Shown: positions 40,680 through 57,332, numbered from the stretch's first letter. The stretch is 64,000 nucleotides of DNA from an uncultured Thalassospiraceae bacterium (GCA_964632795.1 CAZWEZ010000003.1:3922-67921), one strand, 5' to 3'. Notes: a model not told the origin generated them from the letters alone. Program-made: numbers and translations.

Positions 40680-41936
40680 ATGAAAAAATTGATCACCGCA
40701 CTGGCGGCGGGGTTTGCCCTGGTCGTCCTACTGGTCCAGCCGGGCGTGGCCGCCGAAAAACTCAAGGTCGGCGTTCTGGCGACCCTCGAAGGCACTTACA
40801 CCGTCCTCGGCGAGGACGGCGTGCGTGGCTTCAAGGTCGCGCTCAAGCAGTTCGGCGGCAAGGCCGGCGGACGGGAAATCGAGGTCATCATCGGGGCGAC
40901 CGACGCCAGCCCGGATTCGGCCATCCGCGCGGTCCGCAAGCTGGTCGAGCAGGACAAGGTCGACTTCATCATCGGCCCGCTTTCCGGCTCCGAGGGCATC
41001 GCCGTCAAGAACTACGCCCATACCCAGCCCCAGGTGACCATCCTGAACGGCATCTCGGCCGCCCAGGAGACCACCTACGTCGATCCGGCGCCCAATTACT
41101 TCCGCTTCAATACCGACGGCGCCCAGTGGTCGGCCGGTTTGGGTAAATACGTCTACCACGACAAGGGCTATCGCACGGTGGCGACGATCGGCGAGGACTA
41201 CTCCTTCGTCTACACCCAGGTCTTTGGCTTCGTCCTCGAGTTCTGCGGCGAGGGCGGAATCATCACCGAACGGCTCTGGGTGCCTCTGGGGACCAAGGAC
41301 TTCGCCTCGATCATCGCCGCGCTGCCCGACGACGTCGACGCCATCTACCTCGGGCTCGGCGGCGGCGACGCGGTCAACTTCCTCAACCAGTACCAGCAGG
41401 CCGGCGGCGACGCCGCCCTGATCGGCGGCTCGATCATGGCCGACCAGACGGTGATGTCCTCCAAGGGCAGCGCCAAGAAGGCGCTGATAGGCACCCCCGC
41501 CTCGGGGCCCCAGGCCGACACCTGGGACAATCCCAAATGGCAGGCTTACGTCAAGGCCTACCAGGACGCCTTCCCACCCGAAGAGCGGTTCCCCGGCCCG
41601 TCGCTGCTGGCGACCGGCTACTACAATGCCGCCACCGCCGCCTTCACCGTGCTCGACATGATCGGCGGCGACCTCAGCGACGGTCACAAGAAGTTCCGCG
41701 CCGAACTGTCCAAGCTCGAGCTCGACGCGCCCAACGGAAAGATCACCCTCGATCACAACCGTCAGGCCATCGGCAACAACTTCGTCACCGAGGTCTTCGA
41801 GGACGCCAACGGCGAATTGATGAACAAGCTGGTCAAGATCATCCCCAACGTGAACCAGACGCTGGGCATGGACCCGGCCACGTTTGCCACGATCGGCCTC
41901 CCCGGACGCGATATTCCGGAGTGCAAGAAGTACTGA
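40680..41936 (+). CDS. ABC transporter substrate-binding protein, type I periplasmic binding fold (LIV/HAAT family)
   Basis: Signal peptide MKKLITALAAGFALVVLLVQPGVAA, then EKLKVGVLATLEGTYTVLGEDGVRGFKVAL...FIIGPLSGSEG. The long upstream in-frame extension (38703-40679) is antisense to the TPP gene and is rejected. Confidence 0.85.
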   Translation: MKKLITALAAGFALVVLLVQPGVAAEKLKVGVLATLEGTYTVLGEDGVRGFKVALKQFGGKAGGREIEVIIGATDASPDSAIRAVRKLVEQDKVDFIIGPLSGSEGIAVKNYAHTQPQVTILNGISAAQETTYVDPAPNYFRFNTDGAQWSAGLGKYVYHDKGYRTVATIGEDYSFVYTQVFGFVLEFCGEGGIITERLWVPLGTKDFASIIAALPDDVDAIYLGLGGGDAVNFLNQYQQAGGDAALIGGSIMADQTVMSSKGSAKKALIGTPASGPQADTWDNPKWQAYVKAYQDAFPPEERFPGPSLLATGYYNAATAAFTVLDMIGGDLSDGHKKFRAELSKLELDAPNGKITLDHNRQAIGNNFVTEVFEDANGELMNKLVKIIPNVNQTLGMDPATFATIGLPGRDIPECKKY

Positions 41937-42054: not shown

Positions 42055-43188
42055 ATGTCCTTGATCGGTTATCTGACCAAGATCCACTTCGCCGAGGGTA
42101 TTGTCGGCGACGTCCTGCCCTGCGAACTGGAACGGCTCGGCATTCGGCACGTGTTCCTGGTGACCGACGAGGGCGCCGTCGAAAACGGCCTTTTCGAGCG
42201 CGTCAAACCGGCCATCCCGACCAACATTTCGGTCACCCTTTACGATCAGACTCCGGAGAACCCGACCGAATCCGCATCGATCGCCGCAACCGAAATCTAC
42301 GACCTCGAAGGCTGCGACGGAATCATCGCCCTGGGAGGCGGATCGGCGATCGACCTCGCCAAGGTAGTCGGGCTTCTCGCCAGCCATGACGGCCGACTGT
42401 CCACCTACGCCGTGGACGAGGGCGGAATCACCAGGATCCGCGACGTGTTGCCGCCGATCATCGCCATCCCGACGACCGCCGGCACCGGTTCGGAGGTCGG
42501 ACGCTTCGCCCTCATCGTGGATAACGCCGGGCGCAAGCTCGGCCTGGTCAGTCCCCATCTCATCCCGATGGTCGCCATCTGCGATCCCGAGTTGACGGTG
42601 ACCCTGAATCCGTTCCTGACCGCGGCCACGGGGATGGACGCCCTGACCCATTGCATCGAAACCTTCATCGCCACGGCCTATAACCCGCCGGCCGACGGAA
42701 TCGCTCTCGACGGCCTCAAGCGGGCCGCCGCGAACATCGAACTGGCGGTCGAGAACGGCAGGAACATCCACGCCCGGCGCGAGATGATGGCGGCGGCGAT
42801 GGAAGGGGCGCTGGCGCTTCAGAAGGGGTTGGGCGGGGTTCACGCGATCAGCCACGCCTTGTACGACATCGACGGCCACCGGTTCCATCACGGCACCCTG
42901 AACGCCGTCCTGCTGCCCTATGTCCTCGAATTCAACGAGCCGGCCGTCGGGGAGCGTTACGACGACCTGAAACTGGCCATGAAACTGAACAACGGCGCCG
43001 ACCTGGGCGACCACATCAGGCGCCTCAACGAACGCATCGACCTGCCGGCGTCGCTGTGCGAAATGGGGGTCGACCTGGCGGCGATCGACCGCGCGGCGCC
43101 CCTCGCCGAGCGGGACCACACCAACGCCACCAACCCGCGGAAGGCCTCGGCGGCCGACTATCGCGACATCATGCGCGCGGCCTTGTAA
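42055..43188 (+). CDS. Iron-containing (group III) alcohol dehydrogenase
   Basis: IIALGGGSAIDLAK, PTTAGTGSEV and GVHAISHAL...HHGTLNAVLLPYVLEFN are the canonical Fe-ADH motifs. Confidence 0.85.
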   Translation: MSLIGYLTKIHFAEGIVGDVLPCELERLGIRHVFLVTDEGAVENGLFERVKPAIPTNISVTLYDQTPENPTESASIAATEIYDLEGCDGIIALGGGSAIDLAKVVGLLASHDGRLSTYAVDEGGITRIRDVLPPIIAIPTTAGTGSEVGRFALIVDNAGRKLGLVSPHLIPMVAICDPELTVTLNPFLTAATGMDALTHCIETFIATAYNPPADGIALDGLKRAAANIELAVENGRNIHARREMMAAAMEGALALQKGLGGVHAISHALYDIDGHRFHHGTLNAVLLPYVLEFNEPAVGERYDDLKLAMKLNNGADLGDHIRRLNERIDLPASLCEMGVDLAAIDRAAPLAERDHTNATNPRKASAADYRDIMRAAL

Positions 43189-43334: not shown

Positions 43335-44165
43335 ATGAGTACAGCCATTTCAGTCTATCATGGAGAGTTCGGACGCGCCTCGCTCTACTACCTCGACAAA
43401 CCCATCATCAAGCACGCCCATCGCGAAGCCCACCTGACGTTCCACCTTCAGGGCACGCCCGCGGGAATGGAAATATCCGACAAGCCCTGTCGGGTCTGGG
43501 AGCAACAGGGTGCGGCGGTCAATTCGTGGCAGCTTCACAACTACAATCCGGGCGTAAGGAACGCCGGGCAACACCTGCTGGTTATGTACATCGAGCCGTC
43601 CTGGTTCGTCGATTACAGCCGCTCGTTTACCGGCTCGCTGAAGTTCGGCCGCTCCGAGATCGAAGTGACGCCGGCGATCGGCAACCTGATCCAGAAGGTC
43701 GTCTCCTTGCTCCTCGACGGCGGGACGACGGATATGTTCGACGGCTATCTCTTCAAGTTGACCGACGAAAGCTTCACCCAGTCCCATCAATGGACGCCGG
43801 GGCCCCCCCAGCTCGATCTCAAGCCGAAGATCAACGACTTCCGGGTTCGCAAGTCGATCAAGCTGATGACCGAGAACATCGGCAACGAGATCGACATGGG
43901 GAAGATCGCCACCGAATCAGGCCTCTCGCGGCCCCATTTCTTCAAGCTGTTCCGCGACCAGATGGGGGTGACGCCGAAGCTCTACTGGAACACCATCCGC
44001 ATGGAAAAGGCGCTGTACGACCTGACCGAAACCCCCAAGTACATCACCGATATCGGCTTCGACCTGGGGTTCTCGTCGCAAAGCAGTTTCTCGCGGTTTT
44101 TCGCCCTCAACGCGGGCATGTCGCCGACCGACTACCGGCGCGTCGCCCACGTCCTCAATTCCTGA
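43335..44165 (+). CDS. AraC-family transcriptional regulator
   Basis: The C-terminal double HTH reads IATESGLSRPHFFKLFRDQMGVTPKLYWNTIRMEKA...ITDIGFDLGFSSQSSFSRFFALNAGMSPTDYRR. The RBS gggagg is upstream. Confidence 0.85.
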   Translation: MSTAISVYHGEFGRASLYYLDKPIIKHAHREAHLTFHLQGTPAGMEISDKPCRVWEQQGAAVNSWQLHNYNPGVRNAGQHLLVMYIEPSWFVDYSRSFTGSLKFGRSEIEVTPAIGNLIQKVVSLLLDGGTTDMFDGYLFKLTDESFTQSHQWTPGPPQLDLKPKINDFRVRKSIKLMTENIGNEIDMGKIATESGLSRPHFFKLFRDQMGVTPKLYWNTIRMEKALYDLTETPKYITDIGFDLGFSSQSSFSRFFALNAGMSPTDYRRVAHVLNS

Positions 44166-44552: not shown

Positions 44553-45563
44553 TTGATCAAGTTCGCCGAACGGCATCCCATCTGGTCGATCATCATTTTC
44601 CTGGCCGTCATCGTGCTCCTGTGGCTGATCGTCGCGCCGTGGCCCAAGGAACTGACCTCGGTGATCGGGCGCAAGAAGGTCTTCCTCAACGCGCTGTTCA
44701 ACGGCATCACCCTCGGCGGGCTCTATTTCCTGGTCGCCAGCGGGTTCACCCTGATCTTCGGCCTGATGCGGAACGTCAACCTGGCCCACGGCTCGCTCTA
44801 CCTGCTGGGCGGATACATCGGCTACACGATCTCCGATTTGACCGGGTCCTGGCTGTTCAGCTTCGTGGTCGCGTTCATCGCCATGGCCCTGCTCGGCATC
44901 GTCCTCCAGCTCGTCGTCTTCCGCCGCATGGAAGGCGAAGACCTGCGCCAGACCCTGGTCACGATCGGCATCTCGATCGTGCTTGCCGATGTGTATCTCT
45001 GGATCTGGGGCGGTGACTTCTACCAGATCCTGGCCCCCGACTGGCTGTTCGGACCGATCAAGCTGCCGCTGATCACGGCGGTCAAGAGTTCGGGCCAGGT
45101 GGTCTACCTGAAGTACCCGATGGTCCGGATCTTCATCTTCTGCGCCTCGGCCGTCATCGGCGTCCTGATCTGGCTGGTCCTCAACAAGAGCCGGATCGGA
45201 ATGATGGTCCGGGCCGGCGTCGACGACCGCGAGATGCTGTCCGCCTCGGGGATCAGGATCCAGTACGTGTTCGTCGCCGTGTTCGCCTTCGGGGCCGGGC
45301 TGGCGGGAATCGCCGGGGTGGTCGGCGGGACTTTCCAGTCCCTGGCCCCGGGCGAGGACATGCGGTTCCTGCTGTCCTCGCTGGTGGTGGTCATCGTCGG
45401 CGGCATGGGGAGCATTCCCGGCGCCGCCCTGGGGGCCCTGCTGATCGGCCTCTCCGAGCAGTTCGGGTCGGTCTATATGCCGACCTACGCGGTGGTCCTC
45501 ACCTTCCTGATCATGGTCCTGGTCCTGGCCTTCAGGCCCCAGGGACTGTTGGGCAACCGGTGA
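44553..45563 (+). CDS. Branched-chain-amino-acid-type (HAAT) ABC permease, LivH-like
   Basis: LNALFNGITLGGLYFLVASGFTLIFGLMRNVNLAHGSLYLLGGY is the LivH signature region. The ORF opens at TTG 44553, which adds a ~45-aa N-terminal extension, and GTG 44661 is an alternative start. Confidence 0.8.
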   Translation: MIKFAERHPIWSIIIFLAVIVLLWLIVAPWPKELTSVIGRKKVFLNALFNGITLGGLYFLVASGFTLIFGLMRNVNLAHGSLYLLGGYIGYTISDLTGSWLFSFVVAFIAMALLGIVLQLVVFRRMEGEDLRQTLVTIGISIVLADVYLWIWGGDFYQILAPDWLFGPIKLPLITAVKSSGQVVYLKYPMVRIFIFCASAVIGVLIWLVLNKSRIGMMVRAGVDDREMLSASGIRIQYVFVAVFAFGAGLAGIAGVVGGTFQSLAPGEDMRFLLSSLVVVIVGGMGSIPGAALGALLIGLSEQFGSVYMPTYAVVLTFLIMVLVLAFRPQGLLGNR

Positions 45564-46663
45564 GAGCGATGGCACGGCAAAGACACCACGGAGAATCGCC
45601 GACGCCCGGCCAGGGGGAGCTGCCGGTCTGGATCCGCAAGATCCACCCGGTGGTCTGGCTGGTCATCCTGTTCCTTCTGTTCCTGCCGACGTTCACCAAC
45701 AATTTCATCCAGCTCCAGATCTTCGGCTGGAGCTTCATCCTCGGCATGATCGCGCTGAGCCTGATGTTCCTGGCCGGCTACGGCGGGATGATATCGCTGG
45801 TCCAGATGACGGTCGCCGGGTGCGCCGGATACATGGCGGCGATCTTCGGCGACAGCGCCGTGACCACGATCAGCCTGGGTTGGGTGTGGTGGGTGTCCCT
45901 CCCCATCGCCCTGGCCATCGCGGTGGTGTTCGGGACCATCTCGGGCGCCCTGGCGGTGCGCACCGAAGGCATCTACACGCTCATGATCACGCTTGCCATC
46001 GCCGCCGCGTTCTTCTACTTCACCCGCCAGAACTACGTCATCTTCAACGGCTTCAGCGGCTTCAACGCGCTCAAGCCGCCGGCCGTCTTCGGCGTCGATT
46101 GGCGCCATCCGACGGTGTTCTACTACCTGACCCTGTTCTGCGCCGGCTTCAGCTTCCTGGCCGTGCGCTACGTCTCGCGCTCGCCCTTCGGCCTCGCCCT
46201 CCAGGGGATCCGGGACAACGCCCGGCGGATGTCGGCGCTCGGCTTCAACGTGACCGCCCACCGCATCGCCGCCTATTCCTTCGCGGCGCTGATCGCCGGC
46301 GTCGCCGGGATCCTGCTGTCGTGGTTGAACGGCCAGATCTCGCCCGGGACCGCGGGCATCGGTCCGGTGATCGACATCCTGGTGATCGCCGTGATCGGCG
46401 GCCTGCGCCATCCGATCGGGCCCTTCATCGGCGCCCTGGTCTACGTCCTGCTCAAGACCTTCGCCATCGACCTTCTCCAGGGACTCGGTTTCGACAGCCT
46501 ACGCTTCAACTTGGTGGTCGGTCTCGGCTTCCTGGCCATCGTCTTCTATTCTCCGGACGGCGTTCTGGGGCTGTGGGAGCGCTGGCGCCGTTCGAACCGC
46601 CTATTGCGCAAGCGCGACGACCTGCCCCGGCCGGCCGGGGCCGCCACGGGAGACGAGTCGTGA
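45560..46663 (+). CDS. HAAT-family ABC permease, LivM-like
   Basis: ALSLMFLAGYGGMISLVQMTVAGCAGY and the later IGGLRHPIGPFIGALVY. The GTG start overlaps the LivH stop (GTGA). ATG 45569 is an alternative start. Confidence 0.8.
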   Translation: MRAMARQRHHGESPTPGQGELPVWIRKIHPVVWLVILFLLFLPTFTNNFIQLQIFGWSFILGMIALSLMFLAGYGGMISLVQMTVAGCAGYMAAIFGDSAVTTISLGWVWWVSLPIALAIAVVFGTISGALAVRTEGIYTLMITLAIAAAFFYFTRQNYVIFNGFSGFNALKPPAVFGVDWRHPTVFYYLTLFCAGFSFLAVRYVSRSPFGLALQGIRDNARRMSALGFNVTAHRIAAYSFAALIAGVAGILLSWLNGQISPGTAGIGPVIDILVIAVIGGLRHPIGPFIGALVYVLLKTFAIDLLQGLGFDSLRFNLVVGLGFLAIVFYSPDGVLGLWERWRRSNRLLRKRDDLPRPAGAATGDES

Positions 46664-47442
46664 AGACGGTCGCCGAAAGATTGTCGGTGGCCGGGGACGC
46701 TTATGCGCTGGAGCTGAACGGCGTGAGCCGGCTGTTCGGGGCGCTGACCGCGCTGGCGGACATCAACATGCAGGTCCGGGCCGGAGAGAAGCGGGCCGTA
46801 CTCGGTTCCAACGGCGCCGGCAAGACCACGCTGTTCAACTGCATCACGGGGGACTATTACCCGAGCGCCGGACGCATCCGCTTCTTCGGCCAGGACGTCA
46901 CCCGCATCCCGCCCCACGAGCGAATCCGCAAGGGGTTGCGACGGACCTACCAGACCTCGCTGCTGTTCCATAATCTGAGCGTTCTCGACAACGTCTATCT
47001 GGCCTGCCGGGGGGTGTCCCGGGGGCGCTTCTCGCTGTTTAGGACGCGGCGCTCGGACGCCATGATGCATTCGGCCGAGGAACTGGTCGAGGCCGTCCAC
47101 CTCCTGGACGTCAAGTTCCAGAAGGTGGGCGAGCTGAGCTACGGCCAGCAGCGTCAGTTGGAGATCGCCCTGGCCCTCGCCGTGGTCCCGCGTTTCGTGT
47201 TGTTCGACGAGCCGGCGGCCGGCCTGTCGCCGCCCGAACGCGCCGAGTTGATCGAGATTCTCAAGTCGCTTCCCGCCCACATGGGGTTCATCATCATCGA
47301 GCACGACATGGATGTCGCCCTCCGGGTGGTCGAATCGGTGACCGTGATGCACAACGGCTCGATCTTCAAGGAAGGCTCGCCCGAGGAGATCGAAGCCGAT
47401 CCGGAGGTCCAGGAGTTGTACCTGGGTAAGAGACATGGCTGA
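46660..47442 (+). CDS. HAAT-family ABC ATP-binding protein, LivG-like
   Basis: [23 protein letters not shown], Walker [10 protein letters not shown], signature [15 protein letters not shown], and Walker [12 protein letters not shown]. The GTG start overlaps the LivM stop. Confidence 0.85.
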
Positions 47443-49693
47443 GATCGGGCGCAGCCGGACCAGGGAGCCCGACGCGGTCCTCAGGATCAAGGACCTGCAC
47501 GTCTATTACGGCCACTCCCATGCCCTGCAGGGGGTCAACCTGTCCCTCGAGCACAGCTCCCTTTCGGTGGTCGGGCGCAACGGCATGGGCAAGACGACGC
47601 TGTGCAATTCGATCATGGGCCTGGTCAGGTCCTCGGCCGGCTCGATCCGCTACGAATTGAACGAACTCAGGGGATTGGCGCCCAACCAGATCGCCAACCT
47701 GGGCATCGGCTACGTGCCCCAGGGACGCAGACTGTGGCCGTCGCTGACGGTGGACGAGCATCTGCGTCTGTGCTCGCGCGGCGGCAAGCAGGTGGCGTGG
47801 ACGGCCGAGCGCGTCTACTCCATGTTCCCGCGCCTCGCCGAGCGCCGCAACAACAAGGGCAGCCAGTTGTCCGGCGGCGAACAGCAGATGCTGGCGATCT
47901 CGCGAGCCCTGCTCGGCAACCCCAGCCTGCTGATCATGGACGAACCGACCGAGGGCCTGGCCCCGGTCATCGTCGCCCAGGTCGAGGAGATGCTGCTGAC
48001 GCTGGTCGAGGAGGAGGACGTCGCGGTCCTGGTCATCGAGCAGAACATCGGCGTCGCGACGGCGGTCTCGGAGAACGTCGCGATCATGGTCAACGGCCGC
48101 ATCAACCGGATCATGGACTCCGCCCAGCTGGCCGCCGATCGCGACCTCCAACAGCGCCTCCTCGGCGTCGGGCGCCATGGCGAGGAGGCGATCGAGGAAC
48201 TGGAGCCGGTCGCCGACAGCGAGCCGGAGCCGGAGGGCGCGACCCGCCTCCCCCGCCGCCCGGAGAAGACCGAGGTCAAGGTGTTCATGTCCAACCCGAC
48301 GCCGCCGACCCGCTGGTCGCAACCGGCCGAACGGGCGGCGATCATGGCGGCGGCCAAGACCGTCGGACCGGCCGCCGAGGACGAAGACCTTCCCCAAGTC
48401 CTCCGCATGGAGCCATCCTCGCTCGGCGACCTTCGGGGCGACGTCGCCCTGGTCGTCGGCACCCTGGACACCAAATCGAAAGAACTGAAGTACATCCGGG
48501 ATTGCCTGACCGCCTACGGCGTCAAGGCCAAGCTGGTCGACCTGTCGACCAGCGGCCGGCCATCGATCGCCGAGGTGCCGCCCCACCAGGTGGCGACCTA
48601 CAACCGCAAGGGGCCGAACGCGATCTTCACCGGCGATCGGGGGTCGTCGGTCCGCGAGATGGCGATCGCCTTCGAGAACTGGATCGTCCGCCAGCGAGGC
48701 ATCGCCGGCATCATCTCGGCCGGCGGCAGCGGCGGCACGGCGCTGGTCACCCCGGGGATGCGGCGCCTGCCGGTGGGCATCCCCAAGGTGATGATCTCGA
48801 CCGTCGCCTCGGGCGACGTCAAGAAGTACGTCGGGGGCACCGACATCATGATGATGCACTCGGTGACCGACGTTCAGGGGCTCAACCGGATCTCCCGCCA
48901 GGTCCTCGCCAACGGCGCCCACGCGCTGGCCGGGATGGTCATCGGCCGGCCGTCGGCAAGCCCTTCCCGGGCCGACGGCCGCCAGGTCGAGGAAACCGAC
49001 CTGCCGGCCGTCGGCCTGACCATGTTCGGAGTCACCACGCCCTGTGTCCAGCAGGTCACGGCGGCACTGGAGAAAGACTTCGACTGCCTGGTCTTCCACG
49101 CCACCGGGACCGGCGGCCAGTCGATGGAGAACCTGGTCGATTCCGGTATGCTGGCCGGGGTCATCGACATCACGACCACCGAGGTCTGCGACCTGCTGGT
49201 CGGCGGGGTGTTCGCGGCCACCGAGGACCGGTTCGGCTCCATCGTCCGCTCCCGCCTGCCCTACGTCGGCTCGTGCGGCGCGCTCGACATGGTCAATTTC
49301 GGCCCCCGCGACACCGTACCGACGCAGTTCCAGGGGCGGAACCTCTACGAACACAACCCGCAGGTCACCCTGATGCGGACCACCCCCGAGGAAAACGCCA
49401 GCTTCGGGCGCTGGATCGGCGAACGGCTGAACAGGATGGACGGGCCGGTCAGGTTCTTCATTCCCGAGGCTGGAGTCTCGTTGCTCGACGCCCCGGGACA
49501 GCCGTTTCACGACCCCCAGGCCGACCAGGCGTTGTTCGCCGCCCTGGAGGAGACCGTGACCCAAACGGGCAAGCGCCAGCTCATCCGCCTGCCTTTCAAC
49601 GTCAACGATCCGTCGTTCTCGGAAGCTATCGTCACCGCCTTCCTGTCGATCGCCGGCAGGCCGGCGGCGCGACGGCGGAAAGGGAGGAAGTAA
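47435..49693 (+). CDS. Fusion protein: LivF-like ABC ATPase (aa ~14-248), an acidic/Pro-rich linker (aa ~249-336), and a UPF0261 / Tm-1 N-terminal-like domain (aa ~337-745)
   Basis: LivF part: [59 protein letters not shown]0261 part: [74 protein letters not shown]. It is a single uninterrupted 752-codon frame. Confidence 0.8.
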
Positions 49694-49696
49694 GGG

Positions 49697-50530
49697 ATGC
49701 CGTTATTCGAGCGTGAGGCGCTGGTGGAACGGTTCCGCGACATGGTACGGCGCGGCGAACCCATCATCGGGGGCGGCGCCGGGATCGGCCTGTCGGCCAA
49801 GTGCGAGGAGGCCGGCGGGATCGACCTGATCGTGATCTACAACTCGGGGCGCTACCGGATGGCCGGGCGCGGGTCGCTGGCCGGACTGATGTCCTACGGC
49901 AACGCCAACGAGATCGTCATGGAGATGGCGGCCGAGGTGCTGCCGGTGGTCGAGCGGACCCCCGTCCTGGCCGGGGTCAACGGTACCGACCCGTTCTGCA
50001 TCTTCGACAGGTTCCTCGACGACCTCAGGGCGGTCGGCTTCTCGGGGGTCCAGAACTTCCCCACCGTGGGGCTGATCGACGGCACCTTCCGCGCCAACCT
50101 GGAGGAGACCGGGATGTCCTACGGCCTGGAGGTCGACATGATCGCCCTCGCCCACCAAAAGGACATGCTGACCACGCCCTACGTGTTCGGCGAGGAAGAC
50201 GCCGCGGCGATGGCCAGGGCCGGGGCCGACATCATCGTCTGCCACCTGGGGCTGACCACCGGCGGTTCGATCGGCGCCGAGACCTCCCACAAGCTGGAGG
50301 ACTGTCCGGCGGTCGTCGACGCCTGGGCCGAGGCCGCCATGAAGGTCAACAAGGACACCATCGTGCTGGTCCACGGCGGACCGGTCTCGATGCCCGAGGA
50401 CGCCGAGTTCGTCCTCGCCAACACGCAATGCTGCCACGGTTTCTTCGGCGCCTCCTCGATGGAGCGCCTGCCGACGGAAGTCGCGCTGACCGAACAGACG
50501 AGGAAGTTCAAACAGATCGGCGCCGGCTGA
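49697..50530 (+). CDS. TIM-barrel protein of the PEP-hydrolase-like / Tm-1 C-terminal-like family (COG5564 type)
   Basis: [56 protein letters not shown]...[16 protein letters not shown]. This family normally partners UPF0261. The gene starts 3 nt after the fusion gene's stop. Confidence 0.75.
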
Positions 50531-50555: not shown

Positions 50556-53447
50556 ATGACGGGTCAAATGATAGGCACCTTCATTTTGTGGCTGATCGTC
50601 ACGGTCGTGGTGATCGCGGTGATCGTCTATCTGCTGAACTGGCTGTACCACCGCTCGTCGAAGGAGGTCTCCTTCGTGCGGACCGGTTTCGGGGGACAAC
50701 GCGTGGTGATCAACGGCGGGGCGTTCGTGCTGCCGATCATCCACGAGATAACGCCCGTCAACATGAACGTGCTGCAGATGGAGGTGATCCGCGACCGCGA
50801 CCACGCCCTGATCACCAAGGACCGCATGCGCGTCGACATGGTGGCTGAATTCTATGTCCGGGTGTCGCCGGACGTCGAATCGGTGGCCGTCGCGGCGGCC
50901 ACGCTCGGCCGGCGGACCTTGGAACCGGGCAGCCTGCACGACCTTCTGTCGGGCAAGTTCGTCGGCGCGCTGCGCTCGGCGGCGGCCGAGATGACCATGG
51001 AGGAGATGCACGAGCAGCGCAACGACTACGTCGCCTTGATCCGGAGCGCCGCCTCCGAAGCCCTGGCCAAGAACGGCCTCGAGCTTGAAACCGTGGCGAT
51101 CACCGAACTGGACCAGACCGACCTCGAATACTTCAACCCGTCGAACAGGTTCGATGCCGAGGGCCTGACCCGCCTGATCGAGGAGACCGAATCGCGGCGC
51201 AAGCTGCGCAACGACATCGAGCAGGATACGGCGATCAAGATCCGGACCCGCAATCTGGATGCCGAGAAGCAGACCCTGGACATCGAGCGGGAAAGCGAAA
51301 CCGCCCGCCTGGATCAGGAACGCGAGATCGAGATCCTCCGGGCCACCCAGCGCACCGAGCTTGTCCGCAAACGCGCCGAGCAGGAAACCCTGGCCGAACA
51401 GGCCGAGATCGCCGCCCACGAGCAGACGGAAAAGGCTCGTATCACCCAGGAACGGGCGATCACCGAATCGCGGATCGCCAACGAGGAGGAGACCCAGCGC
51501 CGCGAGATCGAGCGGACCCGCGCCATCGAGGCGGCCGAGATCGCCGCCCGCGAGGAAACCGAACGGGCGCGGATCGAACAGGAACGCAAGATCAACGAAT
51601 CCCGGATCGTCAACGAGGAGGAGATCCAGCGCCGCGAGATCGAACGGACCCGCGTCGTCGAGTCGGCCGAGATCGAGGCCCGCGAGGCGACGGAAAAGGC
51701 GCGGATCGAACAGGATATGACGCTGGCCGCCGAGCGCATCGCCACCGAACAGAGAACCCGGACCCTGGAGATCGCCCGCAACCGGGCGCTCGAGGAAGAC
51801 GAGATCGCGGCCCAGGAGGCCACCGAGGCGGCCCGCATCGCCCAGGTCAAGAAACTGGCCGCCAAACGGATCTCCAGCGAGCAGGAGACCCAGAACCTGG
51901 AGATCGAACGCAACCGGACGCTCGAGGAGGCCGAGATCGCCGCCCGCGAGGCCACCGAGGCGGCCCGCATCGCCCAGGAACTGAAGATCGCCGCCGAGCG
52001 GATCGCCAGCGAACAGGAGACCCAGAGCCTGGAGATCGCCCGCAACCGGGCCATCGAGGAGGCCGGGATCGCCGCCCGCGAGGCCACCGAGGCGGCCCGC
52101 ATCGCCCAGGAACTGAAGATCGCCGCCGAGCGGATCGCCAGCGAACGCGAGACCCAGAACCTGGAGATCGAGCGAAACCGGACCATCGAGGAAGCCGAGA
52201 TCGCCGCCCGCGAGGCCACCGAGGCGGCCCGCATCGCCCAGGAGAAAAAGATCGAAGCCGAGCGGATCGCCAGCGAGCAGGCGACCCAGAGCCTGGAGAT
52301 CGCCCGGGCCCAGGTGCTCGAGGAAGCCGAGATCAAGAAGCAGGACCGGCTGGAGCGAGCCCGCATCGCCGCCGAACTGGCCATCGAGAAGGACCGTATC
52401 GCATCGACGACGACCCGCGAGGTCATCGAGGTCGATCACCGCAAGAAGGTCGAGATCGCCGAGAAGGACCGCGAGATCGAGGTCTCCGCCAAGCAGATCG
52501 AGTTCACCGAGGCCGAGAGGAAAGTCCGCACCGCCGATATCGCGGCCAAGCTGGAGATCGACAAGGCAGACGTCGCCCAGGTCCGGGCCATGGACCAGGT
52601 CCGCATCGAACGCGAACAGTCCCTCGAACAGCTCGAGATCTCCAAACGCCAAGTCTACGAGGAAGGGGAGATCACCTCGCACGAAGATGTCGAACGGGCC
52701 CGCATCGCCTCCGAGCTCGGCCTCGACCAGGCGCGCATCATCCGCGACCGCGACGTCAAGAGGATCGACATCGAGCGCGAGACGGTGGTCGAGACGGCGG
52801 AGATGGAGAAGACCATCGCCCTGTTCGAGAAATCCAAGGAACGTTCCGCGGCCCAGGCCGAGGCGGAAGCCGCCCGGGCCAAGGCCGAACAGGCCCAGGA
52901 AAGGGTGGCCACCGTGCGCGAGGAGGAAGTGGCCAAGCGCATGCACTCCATCGACCTGATCATCGCCGAGAAGGACGCCGAGATGAAGAAGATCGCCGCC
53001 GCCGCCGAGAAGGTCCGCGCCGAGGTGGCGGCCGAGGCCCAGCGCCAGATCAACGAGGCCGAGAACGTGCTCACCGACGAGGCCCGCGTCTCGCTGTACA
53101 GGCGCAAGCTGCTCGACAAGATCGAAGGCATCGTCCGCGAGAGCGTCCGGCCGATGGAGAAGATCGAGGGGATCAACATTCTCCATGTCGAGGGCCTGGC
53201 CGGCGGCGGCGGGGGGGAGGCCAGGAACATGACCGACGAGGTGATGGATTCGGCGTTGCGCTACCGGGTCCAGGCGCCGTTGATCGACAGCCTGCTCAAG
53301 GACATCGGCATCGAGGGGGGCAGCATCTCCAAGATGGGCGATGTCATCCGCAGCGCCCGCGACATGCAGAGCATCGCCAAGGTGGTCGAGGCCGATGCCA
53401 AGAAGGACGGCCAGACCCCCGAAGGCGGCGGGGATTCGGGGGGCTGA
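50556..53447 (+). CDS. Flotillin / YqiK-type SPFH (band-7) domain protein, greatly elongated by an internal 44-aa repeat array
   Basis: N-terminal TM helix (IGTFILWLIVTVVVIAVIVYLL) and SPFH core (FVRTGFGGQRVVINGGAFVLPIIHEITPVNMNVLQMEV...ALITKDRMRVDMVAEFYVRV). A long E/A/R/I-rich helical region follows, then a flotillin-type C-terminus (LRYRVQAPLIDSLLKDIGI). Confidence 0.85.
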   Translation: MTGQMIGTFILWLIVTVVVIAVIVYLLNWLYHRSSKEVSFVRTGFGGQRVVINGGAFVLPIIHEITPVNMNVLQMEVIRDRDHALITKDRMRVDMVAEFYVRVSPDVESVAVAAATLGRRTLEPGSLHDLLSGKFVGALRSAAAEMTMEEMHEQRNDYVALIRSAASEALAKNGLELETVAITELDQTDLEYFNPSNRFDAEGLTRLIEETESRRKLRNDIEQDTAIKIRTRNLDAEKQTLDIERESETARLDQEREIEILRATQRTELVRKRAEQETLAEQAEIAAHEQTEKARITQERAITESRIANEEETQRREIERTRAIEAAEIAAREETERARIEQERKINESRIVNEEEIQRREIERTRVVESAEIEAREATEKARIEQDMTLAAERIATEQRTRTLEIARNRALEEDEIAAQEATEAARIAQVKKLAAKRISSEQETQNLEIERNRTLEEAEIAAREATEAARIAQELKIAAERIASEQETQSLEIARNRAIEEAGIAAREATEAARIAQELKIAAERIASERETQNLEIERNRTIEEAEIAAREATEAARIAQEKKIEAERIASEQATQSLEIARAQVLEEAEIKKQDRLERARIAAELAIEKDRIASTTTREVIEVDHRKKVEIAEKDREIEVSAKQIEFTEAERKVRTADIAAKLEIDKADVAQVRAMDQVRIEREQSLEQLEISKRQVYEEGEITSHEDVERARIASELGLDQARIIRDRDVKRIDIERETVVETAEMEKTIALFEKSKERSAAQAEAEAARAKAEQAQERVATVREEEVAKRMHSIDLIIAEKDAEMKKIAAAAEKVRAEVAAEAQRQINEAENVLTDEARVSLYRRKLLDKIEGIVRESVRPMEKIEGINILHVEGLAGGGGGEARNMTDEVMDSALRYRVQAPLIDSLLKDIGIEGGSISKMGDVIRSARDMQSIAKVVEADAKKDGQTPEGGGDSGG
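51405..52460 (+). repeat. Eight in-frame tandem 132-bp (44-aa) repeat units inside the flotillin gene
   Basis: Units start at 51405, 51537, 51669, 51801, 51933, 52065, 52197 and 52329. The consensus is EIAAREATEAARIAQELKIAAERIASEQETQ(S/N)LEI(A/E)RNR(A/T)IEEA. Units at 51933 and 52065 are nearly identical at the DNA level over their first ~85 nt. More degenerate copies flank the array. Confidence 0.85.
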
Positions 53448-53450
53448 GCG

Positions 53451-53888
53451 ATGGCCAAGATATATTGTTCCAACGTGATCAACGTCCCGGTCGACCGGGT
53501 GTGGGCGCAGATCCGCGATTTCAACGGCCTGGCGGCGTGGCATCCGCTGATCGCCGAGAGCACCATCGAACAAGGCGAGCCACCCGACAAGGTCGGCTGC
53601 GTGCGCAACATGAAGCTGAAGGACGGAGGGATCATCCGCGAGCGGCTGCTGGCCCTGTCGGACTACGACTATTCGTGCACCTACGCCATCGTCGAATCGC
53701 CGATGGGGGTCGACAACTACGTCGCCACCCTGAAGCTGATCCCGGTCACCGACGGCGAGCGCACGTTCGGCGAATGGTCGGCCGAGTTCGACTGCGCGCC
53801 CGATCGCGAGGCAGAGCTGGTCCGGAGCATCGGCGGCGATGTCTTCCAGGGCGGCCTCGATGCCCTCAGGAAGAAGCTCGGGGGTTGA
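53451..53888 (+). CDS. SRPBCC-superfamily (polyketide cyclase/dehydrase, START-like) protein
   Basis: INVPVDRVWAQIRDFNGLAAWHPLIAES...GIIRERLLALSDYDYSCTYAIVESPMGVDNYVATLKLIPVTDG. It is a paralog of 54165-54605 and starts 3 nt after the flotillin stop. Confidence 0.75.
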   Translation: MAKIYCSNVINVPVDRVWAQIRDFNGLAAWHPLIAESTIEQGEPPDKVGCVRNMKLKDGGIIRERLLALSDYDYSCTYAIVESPMGVDNYVATLKLIPVTDGERTFGEWSAEFDCAPDREAELVRSIGGDVFQGGLDALRKKLGG

Positions 53889-54164: not shown

Positions 54165-54605
54165 ATGGTGAGGGTGGAGAAAAGCACCATCGTCGAGGCG
54201 CCGATCGACCGGGTGTGGGACGTCCTGCGCGATTTCAACGGCCACGACCGCTGGCATCCGGCGATCGCCGAAAGCGAGATCGAGAACGCGCGGCCCTCGG
54301 ACATGGTCGGCGCGGTCCGCAAGTTCAGGCTCGAGGACGGCGCCGAACTGCGCGAACGGCTCCTCGCCCTGTCGGACTGGGACCAGACCTTCAGCTACTG
54401 CCTGCTGGAGACCCCGATCCCGCTGTTCAACTACGTCGCCCACGTGGCCCTCAAGCCGGTCACCGACGGCGACCGCACCTTCTGGCTCTGGCGCTCGGAG
54501 TTCACCACGCCCCAAGGAAAGGAAAGGGAACTCGCCAGGGTCGTCGGCGAGGACATCTACATGCAGGGCTTCGCCGCCATCAAGAAGATGCTGGAACGCC
54601 ATTGA
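54165..54605 (+). CDS. SRPBCC-superfamily protein (paralog 2)
   Basis: VEAPIDRVWDVLRDFNGHDRWHPAIAES...ELRERLLALSDWDQTFSYCLLETPIPLFNYVAHVALKPVTDG. The ATG at 54165 lies inside ORF 54111-54605. Confidence 0.75.
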   Translation: MVRVEKSTIVEAPIDRVWDVLRDFNGHDRWHPAIAESEIENARPSDMVGAVRKFRLEDGAELRERLLALSDWDQTFSYCLLETPIPLFNYVAHVALKPVTDGDRTFWLWRSEFTTPQGKERELARVVGEDIYMQGFAAIKKMLERH

Positions 54606-54621: not shown

Positions 54622-55434
54622 ATGCCGGTTACGGTGAAGACGTTCGATCGGCTCCGCGACGCCGTCTCGGCGCTGAGTTCCGATTCCGGGGCCCGCTTCC
54701 TGGGCGGCGGTACCCTGCTCGTGAGGCGCCTCAATGAAGGACGAAGCGAGGCCTCGACCCTGATCCGCTCGACGGACCGGGCGATCGGCGAGATCCGGCC
54801 CTCGGGCAGCCGCGTCTTCATCGGCGCCGGGGCGACCATGGCCCGGATCGCCGCCCACCGCGACCTCGGCTTCCTGAAGGCGGCCGCCAACGCGGTCGGC
54901 GGTCCGGCGATCCGCACCATGGCCACCGTCGGCGGCAACATCTGCGCGCCCTATCCCTTCGGCGACTTCACGGTGGCCCTGCTGGCGCTGGAGGCCAAGG
55001 TGTCGATCCAAAGCGGCTACAACAAGCGGGACGTGTCCCTCGAGGACTTCCTGGCCGGGCGCGGCAGGGACAACCGCACGGTCATCTCCGGGGTGACCTT
55101 CCGCCGCCCGGATTCGGAGCGGGACTTCCGCTTCCTCAAGGTCACCCGGAGCCGGCCCAAGGGGGCGGCGGTGCTGGTCATCGCCACCAACCTGAACCTG
55201 CGGGGCGGGCGGATGTCGTCGCCGCGCGTCGCCTACGGCAACATGGCGCCGGGTCCGATCCGCGCCAAGGCTCTCGAGGCGGCGCTCAACGGCAAGACGC
55301 TGGACAAGGCCGGGATCGCGCCGGCCCTCGCGGTGGCGACCGACGGCTGCGCTCCCGTGAGCGATCCATTCGCCACCGAGCAGTACCGCCGTGACGTGCT
55401 GCCGGTCTACCTCGAACGCCTGCTGCTGGGCTGA
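54622..55434 (+). CDS. Xanthine-dehydrogenase-family FAD-binding subunit (CoxM/NdhF-like), enzyme 1
   Basis: RFLGGGTLLVRRLN, IGAGATMARIA and GGPAIRTMATVGGNIC match the FAD_binding_5 pattern. The RBS gggaggg is upstream. Confidence 0.8.
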   Translation: MPVTVKTFDRLRDAVSALSSDSGARFLGGGTLLVRRLNEGRSEASTLIRSTDRAIGEIRPSGSRVFIGAGATMARIAAHRDLGFLKAAANAVGGPAIRTMATVGGNICAPYPFGDFTVALLALEAKVSIQSGYNKRDVSLEDFLAGRGRDNRTVISGVTFRRPDSERDFRFLKVTRSRPKGAAVLVIATNLNLRGGRMSSPRVAYGNMAPGPIRAKALEAALNGKTLDKAGIAPALAVATDGCAPVSDPFATEQYRRDVLPVYLERLLLG

Positions 55435-55453: not shown

Positions 55454-55939
55454 ATGAGTCTGATCCCCGTACAATTCAAACTCAACGGTGAGGACAAGGC
55501 CGAATTCGTCGACAGCACGGCGACCCTTCTCTCGGTGCTGCGCGACAAAATCGGTCTGCTGTCGCCCAAGGCCGGCTGCCAGCAGGGCGGCTGCGGGTGC
55601 TGCACGGTCCTGGTCGACGGCGCCCCCCAGCTGGCCTGCCTGACCCTGGCCGTGACGTGTGAGGGCAAATCGGTCGAGACCGTCGAGGGGATCGGTCGGA
55701 ATGGCGCGCTGCACCCGCTGCAACAGGCCTTCATGGACCACTTCGCGGCCCAGTGCGGGTTCTGCACCACCGGCATGATCATGGCCGCCAAGGCGCTGCT
55801 GGACAGCAACCCGAACCCGACCCGCGAGGACGTGGTCGAGGCCATTTCCGGCAACCTCTGCCGCTGCACCGGCTATCAGCCGATCATCAATGCCGTCCTC
55901 GCCGCCGCCGGCGGGGGCGACGGACATCGGACCTCCTGA
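55454..55939 (+). CDS. Xanthine-dehydrogenase-family [2Fe-2S] subunit (CoxS/NdhS-like), enzyme 1
   Basis: GCQQGGCGCCTVLVDG (plant-type cluster) and QCGFCTTGMIM...NLCRCTGY (second cluster). Confidence 0.85.
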   Translation: MSLIPVQFKLNGEDKAEFVDSTATLLSVLRDKIGLLSPKAGCQQGGCGCCTVLVDGAPQLACLTLAVTCEGKSVETVEGIGRNGALHPLQQAFMDHFAAQCGFCTTGMIMAAKALLDSNPNPTREDVVEAISGNLCRCTGYQPIINAVLAAAGGGDGHRTS

Positions 55940-55952
55940 GGAGACCGCGGCC

Positions 55953-57332
55953 ATGGAATTCAGGAAGGAATTTTTCGCCGACGAGCGCGAGGAGGGTCTG
56001 AGGGAAGTCGGAGCGGTCCGTCCGCGCCAGGACGCGCTGGGCCACGTCACCGGCCGCTCGCGGTTCTACGACGACCACAAGTTCGCCGGCATGCTTCATC
56101 TCAAGATGGTCCGCAGCCCCCATCCCCATGCCCGGATCCGCTCCATCGACACCCATCAGGCGGAGCGCGTTCAGGGCGTCAAGCGGATCATCCAGGCGGC
56201 GGACGTGCCCAAAAACATCCACACCATCCTCCGGCTGATCGATTTCGGGATCGACGACGAACCGGTGCTGGCTTTCGACAAGGTTCGCTACACCGGCGAG
56301 CCGATCGCCGCCGTGGTCGCCGAAACCGAACAGGCCGCCTACGAGGGCGTCTCGAAGGTCCGAATCGATTATGAACAACTGCCGGCGGTCTACGACATCG
56401 AGAAGGCGCTCGAGCCGGGCGCTCCCCTGGTCAACGAGTACCACGGTCAGAACTTCTTCGACTACAACGGCTACGACCACCAGAAGGTCCGCCTGGGCGA
56501 CGTCGAGAAGGCCTTCGCCCAAGCCGACCACGTGATCGAGGAACGCTACCGGATGTCGCCCATGGAGCACGCCACCACCGAGACCAACGGTTGCATCGCC
56601 CGGCCCGACACCGACGGCCGCTATATCTGCCACACCTCTTCGCAGGCGCTGTTCTTCTCGCTCGAGAACGTGGCCCTGATCGTCGGCCTGCCGTCCAACA
56701 AGCTGCACTTCATCGGCGGCACGGTGGGTGGCGGTTTCGGCGGCAAGAACGATACCGTTGTCGAACCGATCACGGTGTTGGCGGCGATGCTGACCCAAAG
56801 GCCGGTCCGCTATTCCTTCACCCGGACCGAGGAGATGCAGGTATCGTCCCACCGCGGCGCCGAGCTGTTCTATATCAAGGACGGGGTCATGAACGACGGC
56901 CGGATCGTCGCCCGCAAGATCAGGTTTTATGCCGACTCGGGGGCCTATTCGCGGCTGTCGCCCTACGGCGTGCTGAAGGCCGCCGCCCACATGCCGGGTC
57001 CCTACACCATTCCCAACGTGTGGATCGACGCCCGGTGCGTCTACACCAACCGCACCCCGTCGAGCTCGATGCGCGGCTTCGGGGTGACCGGGGCGGACTT
57101 CGCGCTCGAGGTCCAGATGGACAAGCTGGCCCGCCTGGTCGGAATCGACCCGATGGAGTTCCGCATCCTCAACGCCTACCGCGACGGCGACATGAAGGCC
57201 CATCACCGGACGACCAGCGGCGCCGCCCTGATCGAATGCGTCCAGGCGGCGGCGGAGCTGGCCGACTGGCCGATCGGGGATCGATACCGCGCCATGTCGT
57301 CGCGCCAGGGCGGCGGCGGGGAAAGGGGGTAG
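55953..57332 (+). CDS. Xanthine-dehydrogenase-family molybdopterin subunit, N-terminal part (NdhL-like), enzyme 1
   Basis: RPRQDALGHVTGRSRFYDDHKFAGMLHLKMVRSPHPHARI (a/b hammerhead) and YTNRTPSSSMRGFGVTGADFALE. It ends at TAG 57330-57332, at the point where unsplit large subunits continue. Confidence 0.8.
   Translation: MEFRKEFFADEREEGLREVGAVRPRQDALGHVTGRSRFYDDHKFAGMLHLKMVRSPHPHARIRSIDTHQAERVQGVKRIIQAADVPKNIHTILRLIDFGIDDEPVLAFDKVRYTGEPIAAVVAETEQAAYEGVSKVRIDYEQLPAVYDIEKALEPGAPLVNEYHGQNFFDYNGYDHQKVRLGDVEKAFAQADHVIEERYRMSPMEHATTETNGCIARPDTDGRYICHTSSQALFFSLENVALIVGLPSNKLHFIGGTVGGGFGGKNDTVVEPITVLAAMLTQRPVRYSFTRTEEMQVSSHRGAELFYIKDGVMNDGRIVARKIRFYADSGAYSRLSPYGVLKAAAHMPGPYTIPNVWIDARCVYTNRTPSSSMRGFGVTGADFALEVQMDKLARLVGIDPMEFRILNAYRDGDMKAHHRTTSGAALIECVQAAAELADWPIGDRYRAMSSRQGGGGERG

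Follow-up and report, generated by a model that had tools for sequence, protein, structure and literature searches.

A conserved fusion of an ABC importer ATPase with a Tm-1-type UPF0261 domain, encoded upstream of a TIM barrel and a flotillin

What might a Tm-1-type protein be doing when it is joined to the ATPase of an importer? The UPF0261 and TIM-barrel family spans bacteria, archaea, fungi and plants. Tomato Tm-1, a virus-resistance protein, is an ATP-bridged inhibitor of the viral replicase without a known enzymatic reaction, and we know of no catalytic activity for the paired UPF0261 and TIM-barrel form. The question is raised by a stretch of 64,000 nucleotides from an uncultured Thalassospiraceae bacterium (GCA_964632795.1, CAZWEZ010000003.1:3922-67921), here called the window, in which all positions are counted from the first letter. 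On its plus strand, a gene at 47435..49693 encodes a 752-amino-acid protein in which the nucleotide-binding domain (NBD) of an ATP-binding cassette (ABC) importer is followed, in one frame, by a linker and a Tm-1-type UPF0261 domain. About 16 genes make up a conserved cluster that has this fusion at its centre. An earlier note, made from the sequence alone, had described the frame as a LivF-type ATPase fused to UPF0261, followed by a matching TIM-barrel gene.

The fusion protein and its relatives

The fusion gene, supported by Pfam, NCBIfam and homologue searches, opens with ATG and contains zero internal stops. In its product, Pfam recognises ABC_tran at residues 31-172 (1.7e-26; 93.9 bits against a cut-off of 25) and both halves of UPF0261, the N-terminal half (PF06792) at residues 339-503 (1.3e-57; 195 bits) and UPF0261_C (PF23189) at residues 524-739 (2.7e-92; 308 bits), both against a cut-off of 27. 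The C-terminal part also exceeds the cut-off of NCBIfam NF002673 (606 against 520 bits). Together with sequence matches in the PDB, these results place the Tm-1-type UPF0261 domain at residues 336-742 (48440..49660, plus strand). The LivF/UrtE-type NBD, delimited by an alignment of 27 fusions and by a structure model, covers residues 14-249 (47474..48181, plus strand) and ends with ...LLGVGRHG at residue 249. Its ATPase motifs are intact: Walker A lies at residues 47-55, the signature LSGGEQQML at 145-153 and Walker B at 165-175, and these, with the Q-loop (YVPQGRRLW) and the EQN switch (IEQN), are invariant across the 27 fusions. The uninterrupted 752-codon frame described earlier is present with all the motifs then quoted in place, the assignment of the C-terminal ~410 residues to UPF0261 is upheld by both Pfam halves and by NF002673, and profile hidden Markov model searches of this product and of the next one assign ABC_tran, the two UPF0261 halves and PEP_hydrolase as the earlier note had named them.

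The NBD is classified as a HAAT-family ABC ATPase at the LivF/UrtE position of an importer. Like LivF and UrtE in the LivHMGF, UrtBCDE and HbaEFGHI systems, it is placed after two BPD_transp_2 permeases and a LivG/UrtD-type ATPase, carries the same ATPase motifs and has a Peripla_BP_6 binding protein encoded nearby; however, the canonical proteins stop where the fusion protein runs on for ~500 residues further. The NBD scores 215.6 bits with the NCBIfam model of UrtE (cut-off 285.8) and 140.4 bits with that of LivF (cut-off 441), below both cut-offs. Of the label 'LivF-type', the HAAT family therefore stands but the closeness to LivF does not, since UrtE scores higher and neither threshold is reached.

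Could the frame be an artefact, or two genes? A stop or frameshift might have been missed in the linker, or UPF0261 might be translated separately from the ATG at 48407, as the earlier note had suggested. The linker is of low complexity and 72.5% G+C, a type of sequence prone to indel errors, and the in-frame ATG lies 12 codons ahead of the UPF0261 domain. Against this, the same protein is found, identical, on two separately stored contig records, a 104-kb ENA scaffold and a Logan contig of SRR8799001, and all 87/87 related loci examined read through from the NBD into UPF0261 with no stop and no change of frame. The more than 120 protein clusters of like length and architecture described below are a third argument. 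As for the ATG, its methionine (Met325) varies among fusions, the 12 nucleotides before it hold no purine-rich Shine-Dalgarno stretch, and no promoter-like site was found on the plus strand between 44 and 54 kb; the proposal of separate expression did not hold up. An assembly artefact or internal start is effectively excluded, and on this comparative evidence the 752-residue product is a genuine, conserved fusion. Shadow open reading frames (ORFs) at 47366-49564 (minus strand), 47602-49716 (plus) and 49703-50437 (minus) have no Pfam match and were set aside as by-products of DNA with 68% G+C.

The fusion is also widespread. A word-indexed search retrieved more than 120 protein clusters of 731-781 residues with the same three Pfam domains and 63-76% identity to the fusion, and fusions with as little as 37% identity emerged when representatives clustered at 50% identity were searched exhaustively, for about 250 clusters in all (252 fusion-like proteins were scored). 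When 185,579 species genomes were scanned for the junction, with a query that runs from 55 residues before the end of the NBD through the linker to residue 135 of UPF0261, at least 80 contained a verified fusion; the best 80 loci all cover the entire junction, and several hundred further candidates were seen. Hosts among the best 80 include many Bradyrhizobium (japonicum, lupini, liaoningense and others), Rhizobium, Mesorhizobium amorphae, Metarhizobium, Roseibium, Sulfitobacter, Roseomonas, Pelagibius, Denitrobaculum and a few metagenome-assembled genomes (MAGs) labelled as other phyla; the cluster is also found on a Shinella zoogloeoides megaplasmid. In a rough neighbour-joining tree, too crude to establish a single origin of the fusion, most intact fusions form one clade beside unfused pairs from rhizobial plasmids, and P0122 lies outside.

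The earlier note was not aware of any description of the architecture. In the literature searched, there is no account of the fusion, of the conserved cluster, of the flotillin link described below, or of the way in which TIM barrel and UPF0261 motifs disappear together; the arrangement is nonetheless not rare, as the spread over at least 80 species genomes and ~250 clusters makes plain. The JGI pipeline labels both halves of the fusion. The NCBI name given to many of the fusion proteins, 'ABC transporter permease', is wrong, as they have no membrane domain, and this misnomer hides the architecture from text searches. The fusion is a combination of known parts that none of the literature searched describes, although public databases, some well-known genomes among them, already contain it.

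The UPF0261 domain scores 338 bits with Tm-1 (3WRY) and 189 bits with MarK (9MPY). Tm-1 (3WRV-3WRY) aligns over the whole length of the domain and carries the same motifs, including the lysine of GT(A/L)DTK. It also shares the partnership with a PEP_hydrolase-like TIM barrel. It differs in setting: in plants the TIM-barrel partner is fused to Tm-1, whereas here, apart from locus L039, it is a separate protein, and Tm-1 carries no ABC ATPase and has no link to transport, whereas in the fusion UPF0261 is appended to one. Of seven UPF0261 motifs, 6-7 are kept in 239/252 fusion-like proteins (~95%), and most are lost in the other 13.

MarK (Saro_1862) of Novosphingobium aromaticivorans, described in 2025, has the only catalytic activity reported for the UPF0261 family: it converts ATP to ADP and phosphorylates the phenolic hydroxyl of acetovanillone and related aromatics (PMC12624787). 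The earlier statement that the biochemical function of UPF0261 is unknown is outdated to that extent, an ATP-dependent aromatic kinase now being described, and still applies to the pair with the TIM barrel. In HMMER alignments, K347 in the GTLDTK motif of the fusion coincides with Tm-1 Lys20 (GTADTK) and MarK Lys16, which contacts the ATP phosphates (its role is described in PMC12624787). Three of the seven MarK pocket residues are also kept: Gly195 and His219, both hydrogen-bonded to the oxygen that accepts the phosphoryl group, correspond to G532 and H555, and His304, a stacking residue (PMC12624787), corresponds to H640. The conserved glycine, histidines and ATP-site lysine make kinase-type chemistry by the fused domain on a planar hydroxylated acceptor plausible, with a substrate other than that of MarK. 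MarK shares family and fold with the fused domain, but its gene lies beside the acvCDEF carboxylase genes, unlike the cluster described here: the 10 kb flanking it on each side, both in the window and in three related loci (L003-L005), contain no biotin-carboxylase-type genes, the acvCDEF/hpeCBAD carboxylase and phosphatase genes being the expected companions of a MarK-type kinase. The fusion as a MarK orthologue in an acetovanillone pathway was rejected, given the different pocket, the lack of acvCDEF genes and a similarity far below that to Tm-1.

The linker (residues 250-335; 48182..48439, plus strand) is predicted to be disordered from conservation and from the predicted local distance difference test (pLDDT). 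It had been described as about 90 residues rich in E, P and A, and this was correct: its 86 residues include 14 E, 12 P and 11 A. In the AlphaFold2 model, both domains have a pLDDT of mostly 80-90, and residues 245-298 and 307-333 fall below 50. Within the linker, the alignment of 27 fusions reveals a motif that the earlier reading had omitted, SNPxPPTRWS (residues 286-295; 48290..48319, plus strand), of which N287, P291 and W294 are invariant. The mean frequency of the majority residue is 0.75 at residues 282-297, compared with 0.32-0.46 in the linker flanks and 0.80-0.85 in the folded domains, and a match to P[TN][RK]W is present in 245/252 fusion-like proteins. Docking of the motif on the NBD or UPF0261 of its own chain was discarded, as the motif stays disordered in the AlphaFold model. 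Conserved and yet disordered in the model, it looks like a short linear peptide for a partner bound in trans.

The TIM barrel, the flotillin and natural variants of the locus

Three nucleotides past the stop codon of the fusion, the next ORF (49697..50530, plus strand) encodes the PEP_hydrolase-like TIM barrel announced by the earlier note (PF09370, 9.8e-130; 432 bits against a cut-off of 33.8). It scores 410 bits with Mll9387 (2P10), and its structure model, with a predicted TM score (pTM) of 0.81, superimposes on 2P10 with a TM score of 0.80. Across 120 clusters, TIM-barrel sequences share 81-85% identity. A profile search gave no sequence link between the TIM barrel and the phosphoenolpyruvate mutase / isocitrate lyase superfamily.

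Natural variants bear on the relation between the two proteins. Where the UPF0261 motifs are intact, the TIM barrel is adjacent in 125 loci and missing in 3; where they are degenerate, it is adjacent in 0 and missing in 4 (Fisher p = 3e-6, a value that is only indicative as the loci are phylogenetically related). All five degenerate loci with readable context (L007, L008, L043, L096 and L097) are without TIM barrel and have the flotillin gene directly after the fusion. L008, L043, L096 and L097 retain the transporter, flotillin, SRPBCC and hydroxylase genes of the cluster; in L007 the contig ends before the SRPBCC and hydroxylase genes. L096 and L097 had been picked by their decayed motifs before the loci were read, and both fitted the pattern of TIM-barrel loss. 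Conversely, L010 (7072-14613) has an NBD without Walker A, signature and Walker B, no LivG, no binding protein and two divergent permease-like genes, but its UPF0261 domain is intact, and both the TIM barrel and a flotillin of 853 residues are kept in an unrelated context of amidohydrolase and alpha/beta-hydrolase genes. In L039 (9359-12478), from a Paracoccaceae MAG, the three domains form a triple fusion, ABC_tran::UPF0261::PEP_hydrolase, of 1039 residues with an altered Walker A (GRHGRGQTA); this single instance may be an assembly error merging adjacent genes. The natural variants indicate that UPF0261 functions together with the TIM barrel as a single unit. The intact UPF0261 domain and the TIM barrel are retained or lost together, and the association of NBD, UPF0261 and flotillin outlasts the loss of either the ATPase or the UPF0261 motifs.

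We rejected the idea that the degenerate fusions form one large sister family: a search with P0124 gave mostly intact fusions, at 55-59% identity. This result and the count of 13/252 indicate that the degenerate forms are rare, scattered offshoots. In L096 (1-1996), hydantoinase A/B genes, of the ATP-dependent hydantoinase/oxoprolinase family, lie directly upstream of the TIM-less degenerate cluster. As a stand-in for the lost UPF0261/TIM enzyme they were dismissed, being found in L096 alone and in 0/96 other loci. Unfused UPF0261 and TIM-barrel pairs also exist, on Sinorhizobium pSymA (L094, 6986-10701) and on a Mesorhizobium plasmid (L095, 13986-19674). Each is followed by a cupin gene, and the pairs adjoin ABC importers of other families (sugar type, polar amino acid type). 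The closest unfused homologues, P0136 and P0162, lie on short contigs that give no informative context. The Mesorhizobium locus encodes in addition a 609-residue protein annotated as PEP hydrolase family.

Downstream of the TIM barrel, at 50556..53447 (plus strand), lies a flotillin gene that the earlier reading had likewise passed over. Its product has an N-terminal membrane helix, an SPFH/Band_7 domain, 44-residue repeats rich in E and A, and a C-terminal Flot domain. Precomputed annotations give this protein no family; a direct Pfam scan finds Flot (2.8e-31; 108.6 bits) and Band_7 (7.5e-15; 55.9 bits), and matches the L008 and L010 proteins as well. The flotillin gene follows the fusion, with the TIM barrel present or not, in 130/132 loci with enough flank. 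The two exceptions are L006, which is broken by insertion sequences, and L050, where TIM barrel and flotillin are found 6 kb further on. In a reciprocal search of metagenome contigs with the N-terminal domain of the flotillin, UPF0261 was found upstream in 55 of the 56 loci with at least 2.2 kb of upstream sequence, and the LivF-type NBD in 47 of the 48 with at least 3.3 kb. No flotillin was found near the unfused pairs on the Sinorhizobium and Mesorhizobium plasmids.

Basic residues come after the hydrophobic N-terminal helix of the flotillin, so the positive-inside rule predicts a cytoplasmic SPFH domain, on the same side as the NBD. The order of helix, SPFH domain, E/A-rich coiled coil and Flot domain is that of known flotillin/SPFH assemblies (HflK/C-FtsH, FloT/FloA, YqiK). 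An NfeD gene, the usual flotillin partner, is absent from the cluster in the window and in the relatives examined. It is from gene order only that we infer an interaction between the flotillin and the fusion; to our knowledge, no flotillin dedicated to an ABC importer operon has been described. The repeats (51400-52302) consist of ~6.8 tandem copies of a 132-nucleotide unit. Homologues in related clusters range from 558 to 1264 residues, probably through repeat number, and their length does not obviously vary with whether a TIM barrel is present.

The importer operon and its probable substrate class

The order of the cluster was established from gene calls and Pfam in the window and five relatives, and by a tblastn tally over all loci. 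It begins with Peripla_BP_6, an iron-containing alcohol dehydrogenase that is sometimes accompanied by an aldehyde dehydrogenase (both variable), an AraC regulator, two BPD_transp_2 permeases and the LivG/UrtD-like ATPase, and continues with the fusion, the TIM barrel, a flotillin of 560-1260 residues, two SRPBCC proteins, the FAD, 2Fe-2S and split molybdopterin subunits of a xanthine-oxidase-family hydroxylase and, usually, a MoxR-type AAA protein. All genes of the cluster in the window are on the plus strand. The periplasmic binding protein (40680..41936; Peripla_BP_6, 1.5e-52) is encoded in 65/87 related loci, a set in which many contigs end early. The alcohol dehydrogenase (42055..43188; Fe-ADH, ADH_Fe_C) resembles 4-hydroxybutyrate dehydrogenase (NF058672, 495.5 bits against a cut-off of 500) and is variably present in related clusters, and the AraC-family regulator (43335..44165; HTH_18, HTH_AraC) is present in 61/87 related loci. 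Permease 1 (44553..45563; LivH/UrtB-like, BPD_transp_2, 1.6e-32) scores 180 bits with UrtB (cut-off 250), and permease 2 (45569..46663; LivM/UrtC-like, BPD_transp_2, 6e-28) is followed by the first ATPase (46660..47442; LivG/UrtD-like, ABC_tran, BCA_ABC_TP_C), with 212 bits for UrtD and 190 for LivG, below the cut-offs. The importer partners fall below the NCBIfam cut-offs for UrtA, UrtB, UrtC and UrtD alike. A genuine urea (Urt) or branched-chain amino acid (Liv) transporter was rejected, as every subunit is below the curated cut-offs.

The stop of the LivG-like ATPase overlaps the start of the fusion by 8 nucleotides, and gaps of 3, 25 and 3 nucleotides separate the following genes up to the first SRPBCC gene. 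Besides the lack of promoter-like sites, a single terminator-like site was found on the plus strand, inside permease 2 near 45650; the totals are below shuffle expectation. The two permeases, the LivG-like ATPase, the fusion, the TIM barrel, the flotillin and the SRPBCC gene are a tightly packed gene run. SRPBCC protein 1 (53451..53888; Polyketide_cyc2, CoxG-like, 7.7e-24) is present in 64/66 loci with enough flank, and SRPBCC protein 2 (54165..54605; Polyketide_cyc2) is conserved in L003-L005, L008, L096 and L097. They precede the subunits of a molybdenum hydroxylase: the CoxM/XdhB-like FAD subunit (54622..55434; FAD_binding_5, CO_deh_flav_C and NCBIfam matches), the [2Fe-2S] subunit (55454..55939; Fer2, Fer2_2), and the N-terminal (55953..57332) and C-terminal (57339..58337) halves of a split large molybdopterin subunit.

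Both halves are best matched by nicotinate dehydrogenase of Eubacterium barkeri (3HRD), the N-terminal half by its large subunit, chain A (247 bits, the next best match scoring 168), and the C-terminal half by its medium subunit, chain B (184 bits, end to end). As in that enzyme, the large subunit is split, here into ~460 and ~330 residues, and FAD, 2Fe-2S and SRPBCC genes stand alongside; identity to 3HRD is moderate, however, and no curated family cut-off is reached. The best solved relatives of the binding protein are 4ZPJ and then 4EY3, 4EVQ, 4EVS and 4F06, the latter four of which we take to be benzoate-derivative binding proteins of Rhodopseudomonas and relatives. Binding of benzoates by HAAT-type systems is documented for RPA0668/HbaE (PMC3223731), and CoxG-type SRPBCC proteins shuttle quinone between the membrane and enzymes of the xanthine-oxidase family (PMC12202499). 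Taken together, the hydroxylase, the binding protein and the CoxG-like protein point to an aromatic or N-heteroaromatic carboxylate as the most likely cargo, and the imported compound is probably of this class. The product of the hydroxylase, a hydroxy-heteroaromatic or its lactam tautomer, is a candidate phosphoryl acceptor.

Two further genes in the window deserve mention. Directly after the split hydroxylase genes, at 58339-61278, a second large subunit of the xanthine-oxidase family (979 residues) carries a C-terminal CoxG/SRPBCC fusion; in most related loci this position is taken by the MoxR-type AAA gene. Upstream of the cluster, at 38532-40406 (minus strand), a thiamine-pyrophosphate (TPP) enzyme resembling acetolactate synthase begins with an odd S-, Y-, Q- and G-rich extension (QSSTYQGGSYQGGSYQSSSYQSTT), which may reflect a wrongly called start or be a real low-complexity tail; near the cluster in L070 there is a copy of the enzyme with 70% identity.

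What the fused domain may do

Coupling of uptake to an ATP-dependent transformation is plausible on these sequence data. The reading that we favour, at a little short of an even chance, is that the importer has an ATP-dependent enzyme tethered to it, with UPF0261 and the TIM barrel as its two parts, which would act on the cargo or on its first metabolite, and that the flotillin organises the unit. Speaking for it are the age and spread of the fusion, the intact UPF0261 motifs in most members, the joint retention or loss of UPF0261 and TIM barrel, the packed operon, and the ABC importers found beside unfused pairs as well. The enzyme would be held at the cytoplasmic face of the importer in one copy per transporter, as the NBDs are expected to form a LivG/LivF heterodimer. 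If it works as MarK does, the UPF0261 domain would use ATP to phosphorylate a hydroxyl or enol oxygen of the imported compound or of a hydroxylated product of it, and the TIM barrel would then process the phosphorylated or enolate intermediate; fold comparison of the TIM-barrel model weakly suggests chemistry on an oxo-acid or enolate. The SRPBCC proteins would connect the hydroxylase to the membrane quinone, the flotillin would organise the transporter and the enzyme in the membrane, and tethering may serve to trap the substrate, or to channel it, just where it enters.

Several observations weigh against this tethered enzyme. MarK and Tm-1 are homodimers, an awkward fit with one copy per transporter. 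MarK, moreover, is a free homodimer that needs no TIM partner (PMC12624787), and four of its seven pocket residues (T196, F283, I285 and H348) are replaced in the fusion, by V533, M619, N621 and L684. With 2P10 set aside, the TIM barrel resembles other folds weakly (2-methylisocitrate lyase, KPHMT and phosphorylmutase; TM score ~0.55, 15% identity), and unrelated barrels (Pdx1, triosephosphate isomerase) are mixed in. The AlphaFold2 monomer model (pTM 0.43) shows no defined contact between NBD and UPF0261 and no fixed orientation. Among the natural variants, L103 has an intact UPF0261 domain without an adjacent TIM barrel, and the degenerate TIM-less loci keep the transporter and the rest of the cluster, so that the enzyme step can be dispensed with while the domain is retained. 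The existence of such loci means that catalysis cannot be the sole selected role of the UPF0261 domain.

Might UPF0261 instead be a regulatory appendage, a C-terminal sensor that gates the ATPase as in MalK, MetN and ModC? It would bind ATP or a metabolite made or used by the TIM barrel, and tune or trans-inhibit import. In those proteins, too, the extra domain is C-terminal to the NBD, the usual site of regulatory domains in ABC importers, and retention of the domain after decay of the catalytic motifs is what a pseudoenzyme regulator would show. The regulatory domains of MalK, MetN and ModC are, however, small ligand-binding folds (~100-130 residues) packed on the NBD dimer, whereas the fusion has a two-lobed, enzyme-type domain of 410 residues on a long flexible tether, with a partner protein of its own. 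Tm-1 offers some support, since it acts through ATP-bridged binding rather than by known catalysis (PMC12624787). Yet the catalytic-type motifs kept in ~95% of fusions and the highly conserved TIM barrel exceed what a ligand sensor needs, and a disordered linker of 86 residues, with no NBD contact predicted, is a poor allosteric transmitter; we regard regulation as unlikely. Distinctly unlikely, in our estimate, is that the fused domain is a scaffold adaptor, docking the transporter to the flotillin and perhaps to the hydroxylase, with the UPF0261/TIM activity as a passenger. The constancy of the flotillin speaks for it: the gene is kept in the 130 loci counted above, including TIM-less degenerate forms and the NBD-dead L010, the reciprocal search led back to UPF0261 in all loci but one, and the unfused pairs have no flotillin nearby. 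But gene adjacency alone cannot tell which protein the flotillin binds, and the active-site motifs and TIM barrel are so strongly conserved as to argue for selection on catalysis in most lineages.

A plain Rosetta-stone fusion, which would secure equal expression only and leave the enzyme to act on a free cytoplasmic substrate without coupling to transport, appears just as improbable as the scaffold. The long, poorly conserved and disordered linker suits two independent domains, and unfused UPF0261 and TIM-barrel pairs adjoin ABC importers of other families as well; the fusion, however, has been kept over 37-100% identity and in hundreds of genomes with no reversion, its linker carries the strongly conserved SNPxPPTRWS motif, and a catalytically decayed domain is still retained. 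Beyond the tethered enzyme that we favour lies a bolder proposal, which we consider highly doubtful, of ABC-driven group translocation: the importer, UPF0261, the TIM barrel and a dedicated flotillin would form one membrane machine that phosphorylates the substrate, or activates it with ATP in another way, as it exits the transporter. The flotillin would organise or cage a membrane patch at which the SRPBCC proteins and the molybdenum hydroxylase dock, with SNPxPPTRWS as a docking peptide. If true, this would be a transport-metabolon principle undescribed for ABC importers, and the flotillin would be the first client-specific one in bacteria.

The fusion gives the UPF0261/TIM pair a defined setting: a binding protein whose ligands can be sought by screening, an AraC regulator expected to answer an inducer, and a nicotinate-dehydrogenase-like hydroxylase that points to the substrate class. 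With culturable and genetically tractable hosts in Bradyrhizobium, Shinella, Sulfitobacter and Roseibium, the long-standing question of what Tm-1-type proteins do becomes directly testable. A flotillin tied to the fusion over more than 100 loci bears on what bacterial flotillins organise, and a tethered enzyme bears on how uptake may be coupled to the first step of metabolism.

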